From NCBI GenBank assembly GCA_964016885.1, contig OZ024755.1, positions 7,316,001 to 7,380,000 of the forward strand: DNA of 64,000 nucleotides, in the 5' to 3' direction. The notes beneath the pieces were generated by a model. It was not told the origin of the DNA and did no database searches. It worked only from the letters and a program-made list of their open reading frames with translations. The DNA is from Eledone cirrhosa (Eukaryota). Each line of letters begins with the position of its first letter. Position 1 is the first letter of the stretch. This document shows, one piece after another, positions 30,250-61,869 of this stretch. Made by a program: the position numbers and the translations under genes.

Positions 30250-30560
30250 TATAATAACTAGAAATTGATTAACATATAAATAAACATGAATAATCACAGG
30301 AGATAATTTTTACAAGTGTGTAACCACACATAGCTAGGTAGGTACCTACCTAGCTATGTGTGGTTACACACTTGTAAAAATTATCTCCTGTGATTATTCA
30401 TGTTTATTTATATGTTAATCAATTTCTAGTTATTATAAAATGCTCGGACCTATTCGTTAGAATCTTAGAGCTTATTTTGCGGGTGATATGGCGCATGTCT
30501 TTCTGGCATGACACCCATAATTTTGATTTAGATTAAATTCATTTGATTTATCTTAATTTT

Positions 30561-30562
<2 letters not shown>
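30250..30562 (+). mobile_element. Fold-back module: 94-bp perfect arms with no loop, plus about 125-bp tail
   Basis: Palindrome 30250-30437 centred on GGT|ACC; (TA)n flanks. Confidence 0.65.
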
Positions 30563-30628
<66 letters not shown>

Positions 30629-30731
30629 AGGGAGTGTAACGTGAAGTTGCCGTAGGTTCACCTAGGTGAGCACTCGAGGTTTAGGTTCACTTCAGTAGAG
30701 AGCTAGACAGTGTCATTACAACAGCAGACGT

Positions 30732-30817
30732 CAGAGGAGCTTTTGATTCCAGGGTCGGGCCAGATCGATGCAGATGGTGCAGATCGAACCTTGAGCTGAT
30801 CAATAGCGAAACGCTTA
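30732..30817 (+). ncRNA. Decayed hammerhead ribozyme with long stem II
   Basis: CAGAGGA-GCTTTTGATT...GATCAATAGC-GAAACGCTTA, in a module flanked by simple repeats. Confidence 0.3.
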
Positions 30818-30935
30818 TCACCAATTAATAAACGTAATGAAGGCTTAACAAATCGTCCTTCTATTATTATCTCTCTCTCTATATATATATCATTAGATTG
30901 AGGAGTAATAATATGTTGCTATATATATATGTATA

Positions 30936-30966
<31 letters not shown>

Positions 30967-31260
30967 TGTTAGATAGAAAAATAATGGTATGTTTATATTT
31001 TTATATTTATTTATTAATATATTTCCTTGTTGTTTCATTGCAGATGATGGAATCCTGATTTTTACCAAAAGAATAATATAAAACCGAAAAATATTTCCTA
31101 AAAACGTTCAACCCAGTCACAGTGATGGGGTTGACCAGTTCCTTATATATGCTGACTACATGCAAATGGAGACGATATTATAATCACATCCAATGTCCAT
31201 CTAGGTATTCCTATAATATATTGACCTATAGATTTGCTGCGTGAGAGAGTATCTAGCACA

Positions 31261-31375
31261 ATGCGACGATTTTGGCGATGGTCACACACGAGTTGGTTAC
31301 TTTTTTACGGAGAGTGGAATTTATTGCTACTCACTATGTACAAAGGGGTCGTCATGTCTGCCGAAATAACTTTAG
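31261..31375 (+). CDS. Putative first coding exon (signal-peptide-like) of the EGF/pentraxin gene
   Basis: ATG at 31261 gives MRRFWRWSHTSWLLFYGEWNLLLLTMYKGVVMSAEITL plus 1 nt, then a consensus G|GTAAGT donor. Phase 1 matches the downstream exons. A polypyrimidine TGCAG acceptor at 31043 suggests the exon starts with 5' UTR at 31044. Confidence 0.5.
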
Positions 31376-31438
31376 GTAAGTCATTGATTTTGGTATTATT
31401 GATATACATACATAACACACATATACCTATTATATATA

Positions 31439-31540
31439 CAGGGTCTCCCCCCAAAATATATATACACACTTCAACAGCATTCTAATAAATATTGCCTGTA
31501 CAGGTAATCAAAGTGTGTATACATTTTGTGCGGACACCAT
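31439..31540. mobile_element. Family E MITE
   Basis: Same interior (CAGCATTCTAATAAATATTGCCTGTACAGGTAATCAAAG), with TIRs and TA flanks. Confidence 0.75.
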
Positions 31541-31711
31541 ATATATATATATATATAATTAAAATTAGAGAAAGAAGCTTTCGCCGCCGTATTTTTGACT
31601 AAAGAAATTTTAGCCTGTAGTGGAGTTTAGAACTCTCAAAGAAATGGAAAAAGATGAGTAAAAAATACGGCGAAAGTTTCTATTTCTAATTTCAATATCG
31701 TTGGGTGTTTC

Positions 31712-31802
<91 letters not shown>

Positions 31803-32095
31803 ACACACACACGTATACGCACACATATTAACAAAATTACTGTTTGACACGTGTGACATTTTGCCAGGTAACTGGACCAACGTGAAATAAAGTGTCACAT
31901 CTACCAAGTAGCTACTACACACCAATGGAAGGTCATCAGATGACAACATATATAACTGTACTCAACGTAGAAAGATGTTAGTCACATTATTGTCAACCTC
32001 TAGTCAGCCTCTAAAAACCCAAACAAGGAGCACCATGAAAACAAGTGCCCCCAAAACGAGGAGAAATGAGGCAAAATGGGGAGCTTTTACATAAT

Positions 32096-32272
32096 TGTTT
32101 CTACTTTTGACACCAGGCCAGCAATTATTCCAGTGCATTACTAGTACTTTATTTTATCGACCCCGTAAGGATGAAAGGAAAAGTTAACCTCGGCGGGATT
32201 TGAACTCAGATCATAAAGGAAAGCATGGCGCCCGACCCTCTACCGATACTGCCAATCCACCACCCTTTTACC
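32096..32272 (-). mobile_element. Family D SINE inserted in a hAT-like MITE, 15-bp TSD
   Basis: GAGCTTTTACATAAT at 32081-32095 and 32273-32287. Confidence 0.85.
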
Positions 32273-32947
32273 GAGCTTTTACATAATGAAAGCTATACTC
32301 ATTTTCACAAGAGAAGATATCTCCCACCCACCCCAAAGTTGACCTCGGCGGGAGTTGAACTCAGAGAGCCGGAATGTATACCATAGAGCCGGAATGTATA
32401 CCATAGAGCATTCTATCCAACGTTCGAACGACTCTGACAATTCGTCGTCTTATGTGAAATTAACAACAGCCTTGAAGTTCCACTATGAATGTTACATATG
32501 AAGGGTCACATGGCAGAGGATGCATACACATCGTACTAATTATCTTAGCCGACAGCAATTAATAAACTGGCAATATGTAGTCGTGTTTGATTTGATAGAT
32601 ACAAATACAATTAATCAATACCTTTAGTAAACATCGATAATCTTATTTATATAATTTCTTATTTGCCTAAGAAATAGTATGATACAATGAAGGTTGTCCT
32701 GAGTTTCATTTAGTATCGACAACAATTTGTCTGTTTAATGACCGGGAGTAGCGTCTAGTGAATTGTTGGCCTGTTGGTATTCTACATCGATATTATGGTA
32801 TCTATCTATCTATCTATAAAGATCGATGATGCTGGTATATCATGAAAAATTATACATCCCATATGTGATTACACATAAATTTCTGCATCCCCGAAATATA
32901 TATAATGAAATAAATAATGATGATATAAAGTATATATCTTTTATTAC

Positions 32948-32999
<52 letters not shown>

Positions 33000-33442
33000 T
33001 TGATAAATGAATACACCGTCACTCCTAATCATCAACTCTTAGCTGGGCTAAACTACTCTCATGAAGTGCTTTTGGATCGCTCGGACTGGCTTATCCCCAA
33101 GACTGGCTTATCCCCAAGGTAAAAACTGTGTATAAGCAACCTATCTTCTACTATAGATAGAGGATCGACTTTAGTACTTGACCGGTACTTCATTGACTTC
33201 GAATAAATGAAAGACAAAGTTGACCTCAGCAGGATTTGAACTCAAAGTACAGAGAGCCGGAATGAATAACGCGAAGCATTTTATCCAACGTTCTAACGAC
33301 TCTCAAATCGTTGCTTTTTGTCCTTTATTACAGTTTAGAAAAACTACACTGCATATGTTAAAATGTTTTTTTGTAAGCTACACCGGACATTAAGAGAAGT
33401 AATTCAATACGATCTCACCCACCGCCCCTTTTCTCCCCCCTC

Positions 33443-33510
<68 letters not shown>

Positions 33511-34049
33511 CTCACCAAATCAATTTTTGTTTATCTATTATTTCACACTATTGAATTTCCCATTTCTCCAGAGAATCTTTACCGTTATTCAGGAATTCTT
33601 TATTTCCTAAATTGTTTCTCGGTAAAATCTTTCACGAATATTTTTATATTGATATTTTATTTAATTCTTCTTATATATATTTCAATGGATCTATTTACCA
33701 ATATATATTTTTTTTCTGCTGCAACGTGAGATAAACAACAGATTAAGAGTAATTCCACATATTGATTTCATTTCATTTTTTTTCATTTTTTAAAAATGTG
33801 TTTCTCATTTTGTTTGTTAGTCTAATTTTATTCTTTAACTGTTTTCAGTCATTAGATAGTGGCCAAGCTGGAGCACGGCCGTATAGTTATTTTTATCAAA
33901 GATATCCACACCAGTATTAATTTGATTCATGCCTGTTTCTTATTTTAGCGATCTCGCTTTTTTCGATTCGCCAATTTACGGGATATGAATAGTAAACGTA
34001 AACAGTTACAAATTCCTACACACACACGTACACGCACACATATATATAT

Positions 34050-34205
34050 AAAGAGAGTCGGGACACCGATGGCTGAGCTCTTGCTGTTTAAATAGCAAGT
34101 CCCAAGAGCTCAGCCGTCAGGGCCCCCGAGTCTTTATAATATAACGGTGCTCTACTACACCAAGTATCGAGTACTCTGTTGAGTAATGGTCTAACCAGTT
34201 TCAAC
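34050..34205 (+). mobile_element. Diverged family B subfamily copy
   Basis: GATGGCTGAGCTCTTG...CAAGAGCTCAGCCGTC hairpin plus the AAGTATCGAGTACTCTGTTGAGTAATGGTC tail. Confidence 0.65.
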
Positions 34206-34352
34206 ATCTTAATTCATATATATATGTAGTATATAAGTGCGAGTGTAGACAACAGACGAGCTAGAAATAGCAGACAAATATCCCTCCAATATATATATTT
34301 ATAGCAACAGAATGAAGAATAACATGGTCGACTGTACAATAGGGTTTATTGA

Positions 34353-34471
34353 CAGTATTAACAATTACAATGGTTTCTTTAGTCCGGTGTGTCTAAAAGT
34401 CACTGATCGTTAGAAGCTACGTCACTCGACCTTAATTACAGTCGATACCCGACCAAATCATCAGAATACTG
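34353..34471 (-). ncRNA. Type I hammerhead ribozyme with extended stem II
   Basis: Minus strand reads CAGTATT-CTGATGA-TTTGGTC..(about 70 nt)..GACTAAA-GAAACCATTGT-A-ATTGTT-AATACTG; stem I is bulged. Confidence 0.55.
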
Positions 34472-34533
34472 ATATCCTCGACACAGAGTACTCATAACCT
34501 CTAGCTGGATTACCTTAAATGATACCTTGTTAT

Positions 34534-34600
<67 letters not shown>

Positions 34601-34666
34601 TAAAATAACAGATTATTTATCCTTATCGAGCCCTCTTTGGATTTTAGTCTTCAAATTTATTATTAT

Positions 34667-34700
<34 letters not shown>

Positions 34701-34705
<5 letters not shown>

Positions 34706-34904
34706 AACGAGTAGGACCCCGACGGCTGAGCTCAAGCCGTTTCGACGGCTAATTCTGGACTATAATTAGTCCAGAATTAGCCGTCGAAACGGCTTGAGCT
34801 CAGCCGTCGGGGTCCTACTCGTTCCTATTACCCACTCTGCTACCTTAAGTATTGAGTACTTTGGTGCGTTATGGTCCACCTGGTTCCTTACCACATTTCC
34901 TTCG

Positions 34905-34906
<2 letters not shown>
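34701..34906 (+). mobile_element. Hairpin-plus-tail element, family B copy 3
   Basis: Perfect 62-bp arms (34701-34762 and 34767-34828), 4-nt loop, then the tail; (TA)n flanks. Confidence 0.85.
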
Positions 34907-34960
<54 letters not shown>

Positions 34961-35558
34961 GCATTAGTCAATTGGTTTGATTTAATTCGAAGCCACATGA
35001 TTGCGAACCACATTCCTTAACCACAGTCATATCACCTATATTATTTCTGTTTTTCACTTTATGTTTTGTTTATTTGTTTCAGTATAATTTATTTACTTAG
35101 GTGTTTATTAGTTATCAGATTAAGTTTTTTTTTTTTAGCTTCGAATTATTTAACATTGATAAAAGACTTTTGGATGATAACAGTAATCTCGAAGTGCCTT
35201 ACTTTCGGTTGGTAATACCACGAAATCTTAATCCCACCCCTCCACTTCAAGATCCGATGATGTTTTAGTTGATTGTTATTCTTTAATTATGCATATTAAA
35301 TATTTTTTCTTTTGTTTTATCGATTTATAGATCGATTTGTTGATTGTTAACTTCGATCTAGATTTATCGGCATCAGCAGTTGAAAGGAATTGTCTAATCC
35401 ATAGCTGATATCAGCAACGTTATTTATCCCATCATTGGATATTGTATTCTTAAGGAAATCTCACAACATCCTCTTTTAAATGAATTCTTAACACGATAGA
35501 ATACATCTGAAATACTAGACACGTGCCAGATCTCATGTAAATGTTAGTCCTATTAAAT

Positions 35559-35790
35559 TATATATGTATGTATGTATATGTGTATGTATATGTATGTATG
35601 TATATGTGTATATATATATATATATTTATGTATATGTGTATATGTATATATATATATTTGTGTATATGTATTTATATATATATGTATATGTATGTATGTA
35701 TATGTATATATATATATATATATATAAATATATTTATGTATATGTGTGTATATATGTATATATATATATATATATATATAAATATATTTA

Positions 35791-35821
<31 letters not shown>

Positions 35822-35832
35822 TTGTGTATATG

Positions 35833-35871
<39 letters not shown>

Positions 35872-36083
35872 GTATATGTGTATATGTATGTATATATTTG
35901 CATGTATATATATATATATATGTATGTGTATGTATATGTGTATATATATATATATGTATGTGTATGTATATGTGTATGTATATATATATGTATATGTATG
36001 TATAGGTATATATGTATATGTATGTATAGGTATATATGTATATGTATGTATAGGTATATATATGTATAGGTATATATATGTAT

Positions 36084-36123
<40 letters not shown>

Positions 36124-36126
36124 AGG

Positions 36127-36157
<31 letters not shown>

Positions 36158-36766
36158 AGTATATATATATGTATGTATAGGTATATATATATATGTATGT
36201 ATAGGTATATATGTATGTATAGGTATATATATATATGTATGTATAGGTATATATATGTATGTTTAGGTATATATATATGTATGTATATATAGGTATATAT
36301 ATATATGTATGTATAGGTATATATATATATGTATTTATAGGTATATATATATATGTATGTATAGGTATATATATATGATATGTATAGGTATATGTATGTA
36401 TAGGTATATATATATATATATATGTATGTATAGATATATATATATATGTATAGGTATATATATATATATATGTATGTATAGATATATATATATATGTATA
36501 GGTATATATATGTATGTATAGGTATATATATGTATGTATAGGTATATATATGTATGTATAGGTATATATATGTATGTATAGGTATATATATGTATGTATA
36601 GGTATATATATATATATATGTATATATATGTATGTATAGGTATATATATATATGTATATATATATATGTATATATGTATAGGTATATATATATATATAGG
36701 TATATATATGTATATATGTATAGGTATATATATATATATAGGTATATATATGTATATATGTATAGG

Positions 36767-36803
<37 letters not shown>

Positions 36804-36828
36804 GTATATATATGTATATGTATGTATA

Positions 36829-36859
<31 letters not shown>
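35559..36859. repeat. Compound (AT)n/ATGT/TATAGG array
   Basis: Direct reading. Confidence 0.95.
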
Positions 36860-37265
36860 GCACCACCCCTGTCACCAATTACCACCCCCACCGTACCCAA
36901 CAATGATAATAACCTACCCTCCACACTCCCCAAAACAACAACACAATGATACTAAATTCGTAGGTGTTTCCTCTGTAGTAACGTGTAACAGGACCCAGAA
37001 GCACTTAGAGACTAAAGTGAAGAATAGAAGCGAAAGTTTTCATTTCTAAACTTCGTGCACCATAAAAAGTAGAATGCGCGCACGCACACACACACACAAA
37101 CACACACACACACACACACGTAGTTAGGTAGGTAGGTACGTACGACGTATGTATGTATGTAAAAGGTAAACAGAAATAACAACACAATCGGTGCAGTATA
37201 TGGAAGGGATATATTAGGTTAACGCTTGATATAGCAGGAAGAGGGTCTTAACGTTTCGGACGCTA

Positions 37266-37465
37266 AGGAAAAGAGTCCCGACCCCGACGGCTGAGCTCCG
37301 GCCGTTTCGACAGCTAGATCTGAACTGTTCGGACCTAGCTGTCGAAACGGCTGGAGCTCAGCCGTCGGGGTATTGACTCTTTTCCTATTACCGACTCTAC
37401 TATTTTAAGTATCGAGTACTCTGGTGCGTTATGGTCCACCTGGTTTCTTACCACACCTTCTTTGC
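37266..37465 (+). mobile_element. Hairpin-plus-tail element, family B copy 4
   Basis: Palindrome 37266-37386 plus tail followed by (TA)n. Confidence 0.8.
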
Positions 37466-37911
37466 TATATATATATATATATATATATGCACTCATGCAC
37501 ACAAGATGAGACACACGTGTGAGTGGAAATTACTTTCAATCATGGCATCACGTAAAGATTTGTTCACCAGTTTATATTCCTAATTAAATCAAAATATATT
37601 ATTTATAAATATGAAGTAAATGCCTAAATATTGAGGGTGCTCTTTTTCCTAACGGGACCAGAATACTTCGGCACGTGAAGTATACATACGTATAACATCA
37701 GATTGCTAGTTGGAAGGGAAATACTGTGATACATTTGTTGTGAAGACGCATGTCTTAGTGACTGAAGCGTTGGTCTTACAATCATGAGGTTTTCAATTCG
37801 ATTCTCGGACCAGGGTGATCGCTGTGTTCTTCAGCAAGACACATGTTTGTGGATTTACATGTGGGTGTATATCCAAGATATTTTCTCCAGCGTTGAAACT
37901 CTTCTTTTAAT

Positions 37912-43049: not shown

Positions 43050-43374
43050 TACTCCATTAATGAGAGGATTAATTAACTAAATGTCACCGTATTTCTATCA
43101 CAATCTATGACATTATTGAGTACTATTGGTCAACCTTTCACCTCTTCATCCACACTTACTCCATTAATGAGATGATTAATTAATTAAATGTCACCGTATT
43201 TTTATCACAATCTATGACATTATTGAGGACTATTGGTCTTCCTTTCACCTCTTCATCCACACTTACTCCATTAATGAGATGATTAATTAACTAAATGTCA
43301 CCGTATTTTTATCACAATCTATGACATTATTGAGTACTATTGGTCAACTTTTCACCTCTTCGTCCACACTTACT
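43050..43374. repeat. 107-bp tandem repeat, 3 copies
   Basis: TACTCCATTAATGAGA starts at 43050, 43157 and 43264. Confidence 0.95.
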
Positions 43375-43406
43375 GCATATTTAATGTTTACCTTCTTTTC
43401 CCCCAG

Positions 43407-46407: not shown

Positions 46408-46538
<131 letters not shown>

Positions 46539-46735
46539 TCTTTTCTAGAAATGTTTCCGAGCTGTGCATTCTGTAGAGTCCTTTCTCACAACACATCAAT
46601 TCTTCGGTTTATAATCAGATAGATTATTCTGCCAGTCTGATGAAACAAGCGCTACTTAAAACTGACGGTTTATTGATTTCAGTGGCTGATATCATGTCAA
46701 TTGAATTCAAGGCTAGCAATTTATCTCTCTCTTCC

Positions 46736-46800
<65 letters not shown>

Positions 46801-47363: not shown

Positions 47364-47564
47364 CAACAAAGAAAGTGTGGTAAAATACTAGGTGGACCAT
47401 AACGCACCAGAGTACTCGATACTTAGGGCAGCAGAGTGGGTAATAGGAAAAGAGTCAGAACCCCGACGGTTGAGCTCCGGCCATATCGACAGCTAGATCC
47501 GAACGAATCAATTCGGGTCTAGCTGTCGAAACGGCTGGAGCTCAGCCGTAGGGGTCCTGTCTCT

Positions 47565-47571
<7 letters not shown>
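47364..47571 (-). mobile_element. Hairpin-plus-tail element, family B copy 5 (reverse orientation)
   Basis: Reverse-complement tail 47364-47442 then palindrome 47443-47571; flanked by (ATCT)n and (TA)n. Confidence 0.8.
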
Positions 47572-47602
<31 letters not shown>

Positions 47603-51068: not shown

Positions 51069-51310
51069 TAGAGGAATAAGAGTCATACAGGCTCACCCCT
51101 TATCTCCCTTTGTTGTGGAACTCTTCTTTGCTAGACGACATTTAGGGCGTTGGTTTAAAGCTAATCTAAGGTATTTTTGTTCATAATTATCTTTGACAAC
51201 ATTTAGTTGTTTTAACGGTTGTTCTAGCGATGAGTTTTCTCATTTTATATGTATTTAAATAATTTGTATTTTATTCCATTTTATACCACCTCTTCTTTCT
51301 CATTTTGCAG

Positions 51311-51610
51311 CTTCTGCGTTAGATTCGCGGCTAGAATTCCGAAATAAAGATCCTGTACGATATACGTTACTTTTGGGTAAAGGATTTCCGGAAGTGAAAA
51401 ATATTACCATTGCATTCTGGGTGAAGGCTAACGGAAGTAATATGAACCAAGATACTATTCTATCCTACAAGCAGGATCAGACTATCAACATATTACGTAT
51501 AACAAGTGGAAGTAATTTAGTTTTTAATATATTCCGCAAACGTATATCAACAAATATTTCGTTAACAAATGAAGTGTGGACTCATGTGGTATGGACATGG
51601 AGAATGCATG
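51311..51610 (+). CDS. Pentraxin/LamG-like domain, N-terminal half (SVEP1-like secreted protein)
   Basis: TTTTGCAG acceptor and G|GTAAGT donor; 300 bp, phase 1-1. SALDSRLEFRNKDPVRYTLLLGKGFPEVKNITIAFWVK...TILSY...NEVWTHVVWTWRMH contains pentraxin-type T-I-x-F-W-V-K, TILSY and WxHxxxTW motifs. Confidence 0.92.
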
Positions 51611-51710
51611 GTAAGTAGTCTACATATTTACTTATTTATTAGCACAAACGCTTCATGTTTATTTTTATCCAGAAGACAGCGCTAGTGACATAAGTATTCA
51701 GAACAGTACT

Positions 51711-53321: not shown

Positions 53322-53559
53322 ATGAGGTTCTATGTATTGCAGTATCAAGGTTTAGATACGTTGTGGTGGGTATATTGATTACCTTGTTCTGTGACATTTG
53401 TAATCACATGAAAAGATATGAGATACGCTAACATAAAACAAAGTATTGATTAATATCATAAAGAAATTGTAATTCCTTACAAAACACTGAATAGTTGGCT
53501 CTGTGGTTCTGTGGCTACATATTTAAATATTTATACCAGGTTTTGTTTTCTTTCCTCAG

Positions 53560-53877
53560 ATGGTAATTGGCGTCTTTACATCAATGGAACCAAAAAACAA
53601 AGCGGACGTGGTGCTTCGGCGAATAAAGCAATTCCTTCTGATGGAGAACTGGTTCTCGGCCAAGCTTCACGTGAAGGCGCTTATTTTAATACTACTTATG
53701 CTTTTGTCGGTGATTTAAGTCACTTTAACATCTGGGATTACGAAATGAAGCGCCAAGCAATTAGAAGTATGTATCAGTCCTGTGTATTTATGCATTGTGG
53801 AAATGTTGTCCAATGGGCGGAATTTCGCAGTGGTACACGAGGAGCGATGCGTCTACGTTGGCCTTCAGGGCTTGTCA
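53560..53877 (+). CDS. Pentraxin/LamG-like domain, C-terminal half
   Basis: TTTCCTCAG acceptor and A|GTAAGT donor; 318 bp, phase 1-1. DGNWRLYINGTKKQSG...IPSDGELVLGQ...AFVGDLSHFNIWDY...CGNVVQW matches the pentraxin GxWxLYxNG, GxLxLGQ, FxGxLxxFNIWD and GNVVxW motifs. In frame with the previous exon. Confidence 0.92.
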
Positions 53878-53911
53878 GTAAGTATACACTATATTTTCTT
53901 AATATTACAAA

Positions 53912-54050
53912 TTCTGCCGAGGTTAACTTTGCCTTTCATCCTTACGAGGTCGATAAAATAAAGTACCAATAATGCACTAGGGGCGATGTAATCGACTTTC
54001 CCCTCCCCTCAAATTGGTAGCCTGGTGCCTGAATCAGAAACCAATATTAA
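53912..54050 (+). mobile_element. Family D SINE, 5'-truncated
   Basis: GCCGAGGTTAACTTTGCCTTTCATCCTTACGAGGTCGATAAAATAAAGTACC. Further fragments near 17150, 33170 and 57620. Confidence 0.75.
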
Positions 54051-58474: not shown

Positions 58475-58511
<37 letters not shown>

Positions 58512-58653
58512 TTGTTATACTTGGGAAGGGTCATATTTTTATAATATTTTCTAAAAGATACAGAAGCGAAAACCAACCCCAACCAAACAGTGAGTGTGTT
58601 TTGTTATTATTTCTGGCAATATTATAACAATATGACTCTCCCCAAGTATAACA

Positions 58654-58685
<32 letters not shown>

Positions 58686-59989: not shown

Positions 59990-59990
<1 letters not shown>

Positions 59991-60163
59991 ATAGAGAAAA
60001 TTGAGGTTGGTAATGGCACATGGAATATATAAGAGACAGAATACTTTTTTGTGAAAAAACATATAATTTTATAAGGTAAGGAAATAATAAAGGGTATAAA
60101 AAATGACCGGTTTCGGTCATATATATATTCCATGTGCCATTACCAACCTCAATTTTCTCTATA
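59990..60163. repeat. Perfect 42-bp inverted repeat with 90-bp spacer
   Basis: Arms 59990-60031 and 60122-60163. The spacer ends in ATGACCGGTTTCGGTCAT (minus strand CC-GAAACCGGTC, hammerhead stem III-like). Confidence 0.85.
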
Positions 60164-60195
60164 ACCTTCGTTTTGTGTAGAAAATTACACTTTTC

Positions 60196-61081: not shown

Positions 61082-61691
61082 TGTCAGGTCACCAGTTGGT
61101 GCTACTGGTAACATGTATCCCAGTACAACCTGTCCCATGGTCGGGTCGTTGGCGACTAAACTGGCAACCCCACCAAGGTTTCTTGGTGAGGAGGGTGACT
61201 TTGGACATCCTGCAGGACTAAATACAAAACCTGTCAAAGGGCAAAGGAGCTCTTAAGAGTCAATGGCCATCCAAAATCACCGGGAGAGATGACCCCTTAG
61301 CCTTTGTCAAGGCAGAATTCTAGGAGAAGGAAAACTCTGATATAACACCTGCAACCCTGATGGTATCCAATGATGTTGACTTGTTCTTCTTTTTGGTAAA
61401 TATCATCTGGGTTAAGAGAGTGGGACTGGCTTTGTGCAGTGCCTTTGCTCACTATAAAAGCTTCACGGCACAGGCATTGCTTTATATCTGGAGATCTCTC
61501 TGCACTTGTCGTCACATGGTACCATGGGCCCAGCACTATGTGTCAATAATTGTCACAAGTGTAGTGTTTGTACCAGAGTTTTCAAGTCGCTGGCTGGACT
61601 AAAAAGTCACACTCGTTCAGCGCATCGGTAGGGGTTCTCCTACATGGATATAAAGTAGTGGCCGTACTCGAAAACGAGTTGGCAGCCACCA
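61082..61691 (+). mobile_element. Family A non-autonomous RTE-like retroelement, apparently full length
   Basis: Nearly identical to 1415-1916 over ~500 bp. Contains CTAGGAGAAGGAAAACTCTGA and a 3' coding remnant [22 protein letters not shown] (C2H2 motif typical of RTE ORF ends). Embedded in (TA)n. Confidence 0.8.
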
Positions 61692-61869
61692 TATATATAT
61701 ATATGTATGTATATATATGTATATATATATATGTATATATATGTATATATATATATGTATTTATATATATGTATTTATATATATGTATTTATATATATGT
61801 ATTTATATATATGTATTTATATATATGTATATATATATATGTATATATATATATGTATATATATATATG

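Follow-up and report, generated by a model that had tools for sequence, protein, structure and literature searches.

Penelope-like elements (PLEs) account for 6.83% of the O. vulgaris genome (PMC13282606). The PLEs described in Octopus, Hydra-1_Obim and the Naiads, all prefer (TA)n as a target, and the Naiads possess no canonical hammerheads (PMC8557442). Members of the Hydra clade, exemplified in the comparisons below by Hydra-1_Obim, Hydra-2_Amil, Hydra-2_Ajap and Penelope-13_HM (2021, PMC8557442), insert into (TA)n, carry a canonical hammerhead near the 3′ end and occur in Octopus; one of them has a 5′-truncated inverted copy attached (PMC8557442, section 11, files S1 and S2). The head-to-head inverted arrangement was shown across PLE clades by Craig et al., and the formation of the inverted ends was left as an open question (PMC8557442). 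In Penelope of Adineta vaga, head-to-head inverted pLTRs with junction palindromes and a one-sided tail were read as the result of self-priming (Arkhipova et al. 2013, PMC3846280), the head-to-head junctions needing priming on an antisense template. The hammerheads of metazoan PLEs are marked by G10.1-C11.1 and by a palindromic stretch from 15.2 to 16.2, and the palindromic loop III is their hallmark (PMC4209133). Poseidon of Anolis uses AT-rich targets in vitro, where two RT start sites define the tail, and its insertion proceeds from an uncut RNA template with no need for hammerhead cleavage (Frangieh et al. 2024, PMC11167929).

The family considered here, designated family B, is a high-copy, non-coding octopus repeat of about 200 bp. 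It is similar to the Hydra-clade PLEs in the (TA)n target, hammerhead-related sequence near the 3′ end, the TA-like site about 20 nt after it and the occurrence in Octopus, but it has no ORF, retains half of the ribozyme, is uniformly about 200 bp long, and its apex is confined to loop II. The structures of A. vaga resemble it in the inverted repeat, the junction palindrome, the tail on a single side and the proposed self-priming. However, they flank low-copy elements of kilobase size and have a 31-bp tail, whereas in family B the hairpin is the whole element, the copies are very many and the tail measures 66-78 nt, compared with 30-40 nt in published PLEs. Non-LTR retrozymes are also short, non-coding, hammerhead-related and derived from PLE pLTRs (bioRxiv 10.64898/2026.07.22.740005), but their units are arranged in tandem, head-to-tail, and each holds an intact hammerhead, whereas the family B unit is inverted and dispersed and its hammerhead is broken. 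The independence of Poseidon insertion from cleavage fits the loss of CUGANGA in family B; Poseidon, unlike family B, is autonomous, and the formation of inversions is not described in the portions of the article covered here (PMC11167929).

Hairpin repeats and their relatives in the window

The window, that is, the whole analysed stretch of 64,000 nucleotides, is animal DNA with 27% masked as dinucleotide repeat. The BLAST search with 34701-34906 against the window detected five full-length copies of family B and two weaker relatives. The order of parts is the same in all five copies and comprises (TA)n, inverted arm, variable apex, sense arm, one-sided tail and microsatellite (Table 1), with an inverted 5′-truncated copy joined head-to-head via a palindrome in each of them. 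The tail is present at one end only, with lengths of 74, 66, 78, 78 and 78 nt in copies 774, 26595, 34701, 37266 and 47443, respectively, and the left arm of the focal copy (34701) terminates in the TA run without a tail. The core, measured from the left GAC to the right GTC, spans 30, 31, 42, 35 and 40 nt in the same order of copies. TA runs are located on both flanks in three copies and on a single flank in the remaining two. The five units are dispersed and single, unlike the head-to-tail units with complete hammerheads in non-LTR retrozymes.

The earlier note had described perfect 62-bp arms in the focal copy, and 34701-34828 is indeed a perfect inverted repeat with a 4-nt loop; the motifs quoted there for the family are all present as well. 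The right arm, which was said always to read stem-GTC-GAAA(C)-GGC, does so in four of the five copies, copy 47443 being mutated. The end of the focal tail (34874-34895) resembles the end of the sense arm (34809-34833), with 12 of 15 letters of GGTCC...TTCCT...TACC in common, and these stretches are possibly two similar RT start or nick sites.

Table 1. Positions of the family B copies, their parts and the related elements in the window
Feature	Position	Strand	Remarks
(TA)n target, left flank of focal copy	34670..34700	.	seen in the sequence
Left arm of focal copy	34701..34762	-	inverted copy of the sense arm, 62 bp, 0 mismatches
Focal apex loop	34763..34766	.	4 nt
Focal sense arm	34767..34828	+	likely the 5′-truncated terminal repeat of a Penelope-like element
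3′ half of type I hammerhead in focal sense arm	34783..34814	+	CUGANGA absent
End of stem II	34783-34785	+	
GAAA	34786-34789	+	
Stem III	34789-34794 with 34802-34807	+	6 bp, ACGGCT/AGCCGT
Cleavage triplet GUC	34806-34808	+	
Likely stem I 3′ strand	34809-34814	+	
Focal one-sided tail	34829..34906	+	78 nt; CTCT(A/G)CT and GAGTACT motifs (GAGTACT at 34854-34861)
(TA)n target, right flank of focal copy	34907..34958	.	seen in the sequence
Family B copy 774	774..966	+	subfamily B2; 4 arm mismatches
Family B copy 26595	26595..26777	+	subfamily B1; 5 arm mismatches; 12-nt tail deletion
Family B copy 37266	37264..37466	+	subfamily B2; 6 arm mismatches; left side without TA run
Family B copy 47443	47365..47572	-	subfamily B2; 8 arm mismatches
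Family F	15241..15648	-	layout like family B; 153-bp perfect arms; complete type I minimal hammerhead (core 15434-15428)
Family A	30038..30237	+	layout like family B; 62-bp arms
Family C	34046..34215	+	stem III and tail related to family B; fold-back at about GAAA
Family C, deleted copy	1161-1285	-	
Second complete type I hammerhead	5057-5128	+	long stem II; TA-flanked island 4891-5159 without hairpin

Family F consists of a TA run, a 153-bp inverted arm, a 6-nt loop, the sense arm, a 96-nt tail carrying a GAGTGCT motif and a second TA run. Stem III of its full ribozyme is palindromic, and since this ribozyme lies in a perfect fold-back, both strands encode it. In family A the fold-back immediately precedes a CTGAAGAT...TGAAAC core, which is spelled as in the hammerheads of the Hydra clade. 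The strict descriptor of a full type I hammerhead gave three matches in two elements, one of which is family F, whereas 30 block shuffles yielded 0.067 on average. The cleavage site is situated downstream of the fold in families A, B, C and F, and the template was therefore likely an RNA that had not been cut; the arms span 55-153 bp across the families. The motif GAGT(A/G)CT(C/T) was found 34-60 nt before a TA run nine times, compared with 0.33 in 30 shuffles, and these nine occurrences are not all independent, since four of them belong to family B copies.

Two TA-flanked, hairpin-free islands, 34299-34535 (+) and 30627-30879 (-), have GAGT(A/G)CTC 42 nt before the TA run and are possible un-inverted PLE ends of other families. 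The stretch 30250-30562 (+), which adjoins family A and lies between TA runs, contains a perfect loopless palindrome of 94 bp with a one-sided 125-nt tail, and a hammerhead core was not seen in it. At 59990-60195, inverted ends of 42 bp enclose 90 nt, with a 32-nt extension on one side and a hammerhead-like GAAACCGGTC on the minus strand, and the layout is that of a classic Penelope end. Decayed, TA-flanked hammerhead-like cores at 8907-9129 (-) and 46538-46738 (+) fail the strict descriptor, and three tandem copies of a 107-bp unit with a GAGTACT motif occupy 43050-43378. The window also contains pentraxin-domain frames (51259-51615 and 53454-53969, +), which are exons of an adhesion GPCR gene with 96% identity to Octopus bimaculoides, a match that identifies the host as an octopus. 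At 5892-6604, a SINE-like repeat is enclosed by inverted repeats of 146 bp with 14 mismatches, within which a perfect pair of 46 bp is nested, and the whole may represent a TIR element with a SINE inside. The elements at 19070-19362 and 58486-58679, which are imperfect palindromes and have terminal inverted repeats, are MITE-like. A repeat family with a C2H2-like frame (sub-threshold in Pfam) is represented at 1409-1993, 12724-13475 and 61178-61768 and includes a young pair with 93% identity.

Hammerhead remnant and tail of family B

Judged from sequence, family B holds the 3′ half of a Penelope-type hammerhead, which is a remnant rather than a ribozyme and, with CUGANGA lost, would not cut. 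It was thought in the earlier note that the sequence after GAAAC lacks a canonical UH cleavage site, but a 6-bp stem III closed by GUC is located there, the loop of stem III holds the palindrome GAGCTC, and U plus H are kept in all ten family B arms. The link of the element to hammerheads, which the note had proposed tentatively, is therefore stronger than was claimed. When the 30 bases downstream were shuffled 50,000 times, a stem of at least six Watson-Crick pairs together with H was formed in 0.33% of cases, and a looser rule (five pairs, G-U allowed) was satisfied by 6.5% of 20,000 shuffles. No compensatory change in stem III was found across the five copies, and the folding energy of the family is not unusual (z 0.09). 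The Rfam search gave no hammerhead match and nothing at the gathering threshold over the window; over 29900-37600 the matches were sub-threshold only, of miRNA type and other chance ones. CUGANGA and the 5′ strand of stem I were not found within 1 kb upstream of any of the five copies. Thus, the non-palindromic parent with CTGANGA immediately 5′ of GAC(A/G)GCT, for which the note had recommended a search, was not encountered within that distance, and neither an unfolded parent nor a coding partner of family B was found in the window. Given this and the core length, which varies from 30 to 42 nt, a fixed stem II acting as a self-primer at the apex is not supported.

In Hydra-2_Amil and Hydra-2_Ajap, the hammerhead is followed after about 20 nt by TATAT and then by CTCT(A/G)C, with GAGCACT 18-21 nt later; in family B, GAGTACT stands 19 nt after CTCT(A/G)CT. 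The comparison of the tail with six new Hydra consensus ends, made by eye with no alignment or chance estimate, revealed a motif like that of family B in two ends, and it was not clear in the other four. Three family B motifs had no exact match in the portions of the supplement of Craig et al. examined (PMC8557442), and in the same material the family B sequence does not match the end of Hydra-1_Obim. In the 3′ ends of Naiad_Obim and Naiad_Ovul the halves of the hammerhead core are permuted, GTCGAAAC preceding CTGATGA (PMC8557442, file S5). This GTCGAAAC is common to the Naiad ends and family B, and the remainder does not match.

As for other classes of elements, a B box of the usual pattern was present in none of the five copies, and no tRNA was found in the window, which does not suggest a tRNA-derived SINE. 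There was no Pfam match to RT or GIY-YIG in 113 of the 125 unmasked frames of the window, no homologue of the 46-aa open frame across the arm and tail, and no match in pattern scans of viral, two metagenome and prokaryote collections.

Relationships of the arms and evidence from public reads

The left arms of the five copies were reverse-complemented and compared with the right arms over about 54 columns. The arms of one copy differ at 4, 5, 0, 6 and 8 positions in copies 774, 26595, 34701, 37266 and 47443, and the mean differences are 10.2 between left arms, 11.7 between right arms and 10.95 between left and right ones. The arms group by subfamily and copy and not by side. Subfamily B1 comprises copies 26595 and 34701, subfamily B2 comprises copies 774, 37266 and 47443, and the subfamilies are distinguished by changes present on both arms, among them an indel of 2 nt; between the B1 copies there are five differing sites, likewise on both arms. 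It appears from these groupings and mismatches that a single template gave rise to both arms, no later than insertion, and that each arm decayed on its own afterwards. The earlier note had opposed to its reading a pattern of left arms clustering with left arms around a fixed loop; what was found is clustering by copy and subfamily with apices of 30-42 nt.

The pairing of each arm with its own partner gives a sum of 23 differences, which is attained by 5 of 120 pairings, and the best of the pairings listed merely shuffle B2 copies among themselves. Within B2 the own pairing sums to 18, inside the range of 16-19 spanned by all six pairings. Consequently, the statement that arms stay complementary within each copy is true of the focal copy (0 mismatches) and fails for the other four, with their 4-8 mismatches and, in B2, own pairing no better than any other. 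These mismatches also mean that lasting concerted evolution is absent, and lasting arm-to-arm conversion in family B is not supported. The proposal that one arm was copied from the other at or after each insertion stands as far as the derivation of one arm from the other is concerned; the alternative given in the note, gene conversion between the arms, is not supported as an ongoing process.

Public reads were compared with the reference 34734-34905 at 80% likeness, and the matching material comprised 17,640 contigs (run X1) and 23,566 and 24,189 raw reads (0.19% of reads), with no match in the last of the four runs; the letter changes are the best-supported 40 of 156, the joints are the best-supported 15 of 35, and contig counts and depth here are not copy numbers. 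The arms are concordant only at alleles common in the family: the five alleles found on both arms are all common in the public data (105-128 contigs each), for example, T34777A in 124 contigs and A34802T in at least 128. Since the concordant alleles are common ones, copying at each insertion is unproven with five copies.

The arm ends at 34828 and passes into (AT)n in 3577 and 3096 raw reads, and this constant position indicates that the left end is fixed; TA after both element ends was seen in the public reads. Among the best-supported changes and joints there are apex deletions of 1, 5, 8, 11 and 11 nt and strand-switch joints at several positions within 34768-34774, which point to a variable apex. 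The changes seen at 34763 in 63 contigs and at 34765 in 46 contigs correspond to the focal loop as seen in reverse orientation, and it is likely that some apex classes are common to many copies. Thus, loops do differ in every copy in the window, where the five apices are distinct, as the note had stated, while genome-wide the focal loop seems to recur in dozens of contigs.

Loose ends before 34778 (1622 and 1744 reads) were considered as an unfolded parent, and the TTAG in them as a splice site, and both were rejected. Their 30-letter consensus contains no CTGANGA and is absent from the window; compared by eye, it matches the left arm and apex of copy 774 in register at 18 of 30 letters. A decayed left arm is the more likely source of these ends.

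Origin, rival explanations and significance

The PLE origin of family B is highly probable, and its derivation from the Hydra clade is favoured more modestly. Family B is best described as a non-autonomous Penelope-like derivative and not as an autonomous PLE (206 bp; RT and GIY-YIG unmatched in 113 frames). It is likely that family B is the 3′ end of an endonuclease-bearing PLE, consisting of a truncated terminal repeat and the tail, probably of the Hydra clade, with the left arm made by fold-back self-priming. The GIY-YIG endonuclease of a partner would nick a (TA)n run, and the partner reverse transcriptase would start at the tail end, copy the sense arm and stop in hammerhead loop II. The new strand could then fold back on 2-3 bases of microhomology in loop II, copy itself to the TAT at the arm-tail border and join the target there. 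Arms copied by fold-back would be identical at birth; their later independent decay, like that of LTR pairs, is shown by the 0-8 mismatches. Source copies that are already hairpins probably yield offspring too, which would explain the recurrent apex classes. A direct hint of folding at microhomology comes from copy 774, which closes at GAT/ATC, since in copy 47443, which is longer, this GAT stays unpaired within the loop; the loop of copy 26595 contains bases that in 34701 belong to the arm. Comparable patterns could arise if a longer master hairpin lost bases at its tip. Three copies have an asymmetric apex, and their unpaired bases come from the sense side. The antisense-template priming proposed for A. 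vaga (PMC3846280) is a route other than the fold-back cycle proposed here and counts against it.

The PLE origin may also be combined with faithful copying from a few ready-made hairpin masters, each formed by one fold-back, the apex differences being those of the masters or tip deletions. Hairpin-tip deletions in palindromes are an established phenomenon, the alleles shared by both arms (T34777A, A34802T) are common in the family, the focal loop appears to recur in reverse orientation, and the starts of all copies lie within 12 nt of each other. Yet the five copies have five apices, at least three lineages each have matched arms, the reads add five apex deletions and the strand-switch positions 34768-34774, and the unpaired apex bases of the asymmetric copies are sense-side, so few masters are considered a rather unlikely source, and within the PLE origin the greater weight is given to a left arm that is rebuilt repeatedly. 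Arm-to-arm gene conversion or cruciform repair after insertion might account for the perfect 62 bp of the focal copy and for the five differences between 26595 and 34701 on both arms, but it would hardly leave 4-8 unrepaired mismatches in four of five copies, the B2 copies show no excess of own-arm similarity, and the shared alleles are family-wide; conversion is thus very improbable.

A non-autonomous Helentron-type element (HINE/DINE-1) or a MITE, with the hammerhead likeness due to chance, would also be short, non-coding and high-copy with inverted segments. In family B, an inverted repeat is located close to the 5′ end and a palindrome of 8 bp stands 44 nt before the 3′ end. The 15-mer at the 5′ end has a weak inverted match in the tail, with agreement at 8-12 of 15 letters, and the 3′ hairpins are weak (-1.7 to -3.5 kcal/mol). 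TIR elements and Helitrons have expanded in Octopus (PMC13282606). However, only 5-9 of 20 terminal bases pair, so that terminal inverted repeats of MITE type are lacking, and a subterminal pair is at best weakly indicated; the subTIRs of HINEs measure 12-15 bp (PMC4067079) against arms of 55-153 bp. The flanks are (TA)n and not the TT of HINE/DINE-1 insertion, and sister families possess complete hammerhead cores in addition to the remnant in family B. This origin is judged very improbable, on a par with conversion. An artefact of assembly or library preparation was suggested by the occurrence of perfect palindromes of 62, 94 and 153 bp in one window, as polishing could homogenise arms, but the arms are mismatched in four of five copies, and independent raw reads carry the arm-TA junctions and strand-switch joints, which makes it the least credible of all.

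The preferred reading, fold-back at the 3′ end of a PLE, allows a bolder version, in which the hairpins are self-renewing mini-retroelements: transcripts of hairpin copies serve as templates, of which the partner RT copies the tail, the right arm and the apex, and by snapping back the new strand rebuilds the left arm from the right one at every jump. This version is tentative and rather doubtful. If true, neither an unfolded parent nor a working ribozyme would be needed, the divergence of the arms would give the date of every insertion, and the process would have taken place in octopus in several families unrelated to one another (A, B, C and F).

The head-to-head inverted PLE ends and the idea of self-priming have already been published (PMC3846280, PMC8557442). 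In the octopus and mollusc literature no description was found of uniform, very abundant 200-bp hairpin PLE derivatives folding inside the ribozyme; repeat libraries (O. vulgaris, Repbase), which lay outside this scope, may list the family under another label, and automated libraries may wrongly classify repeats of this type as MITEs or SINEs. The many short copies, in which a single read length covers the junction and the two arms, make the question of how inverted PLE ends are formed testable by genome analysis alone, and the arm divergence in family B offers an LTR-like clock.

The hyper-editing signal of octopus is exceptional, and near-perfect dsRNA is found there in excess; in the frog, the family with the most editing is a palindromic repeat of 200 bp (PMC5625713). 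Hairpins of the family B type are putative candidate substrates of editing. If the self-renewing version is true, the octopus genome would have been filled with perfect dsRNA hairpins for ADAR editing, and family B would provide both a direct genomic test of the formation of PLE inversions and a candidate source of octopus dsRNA.
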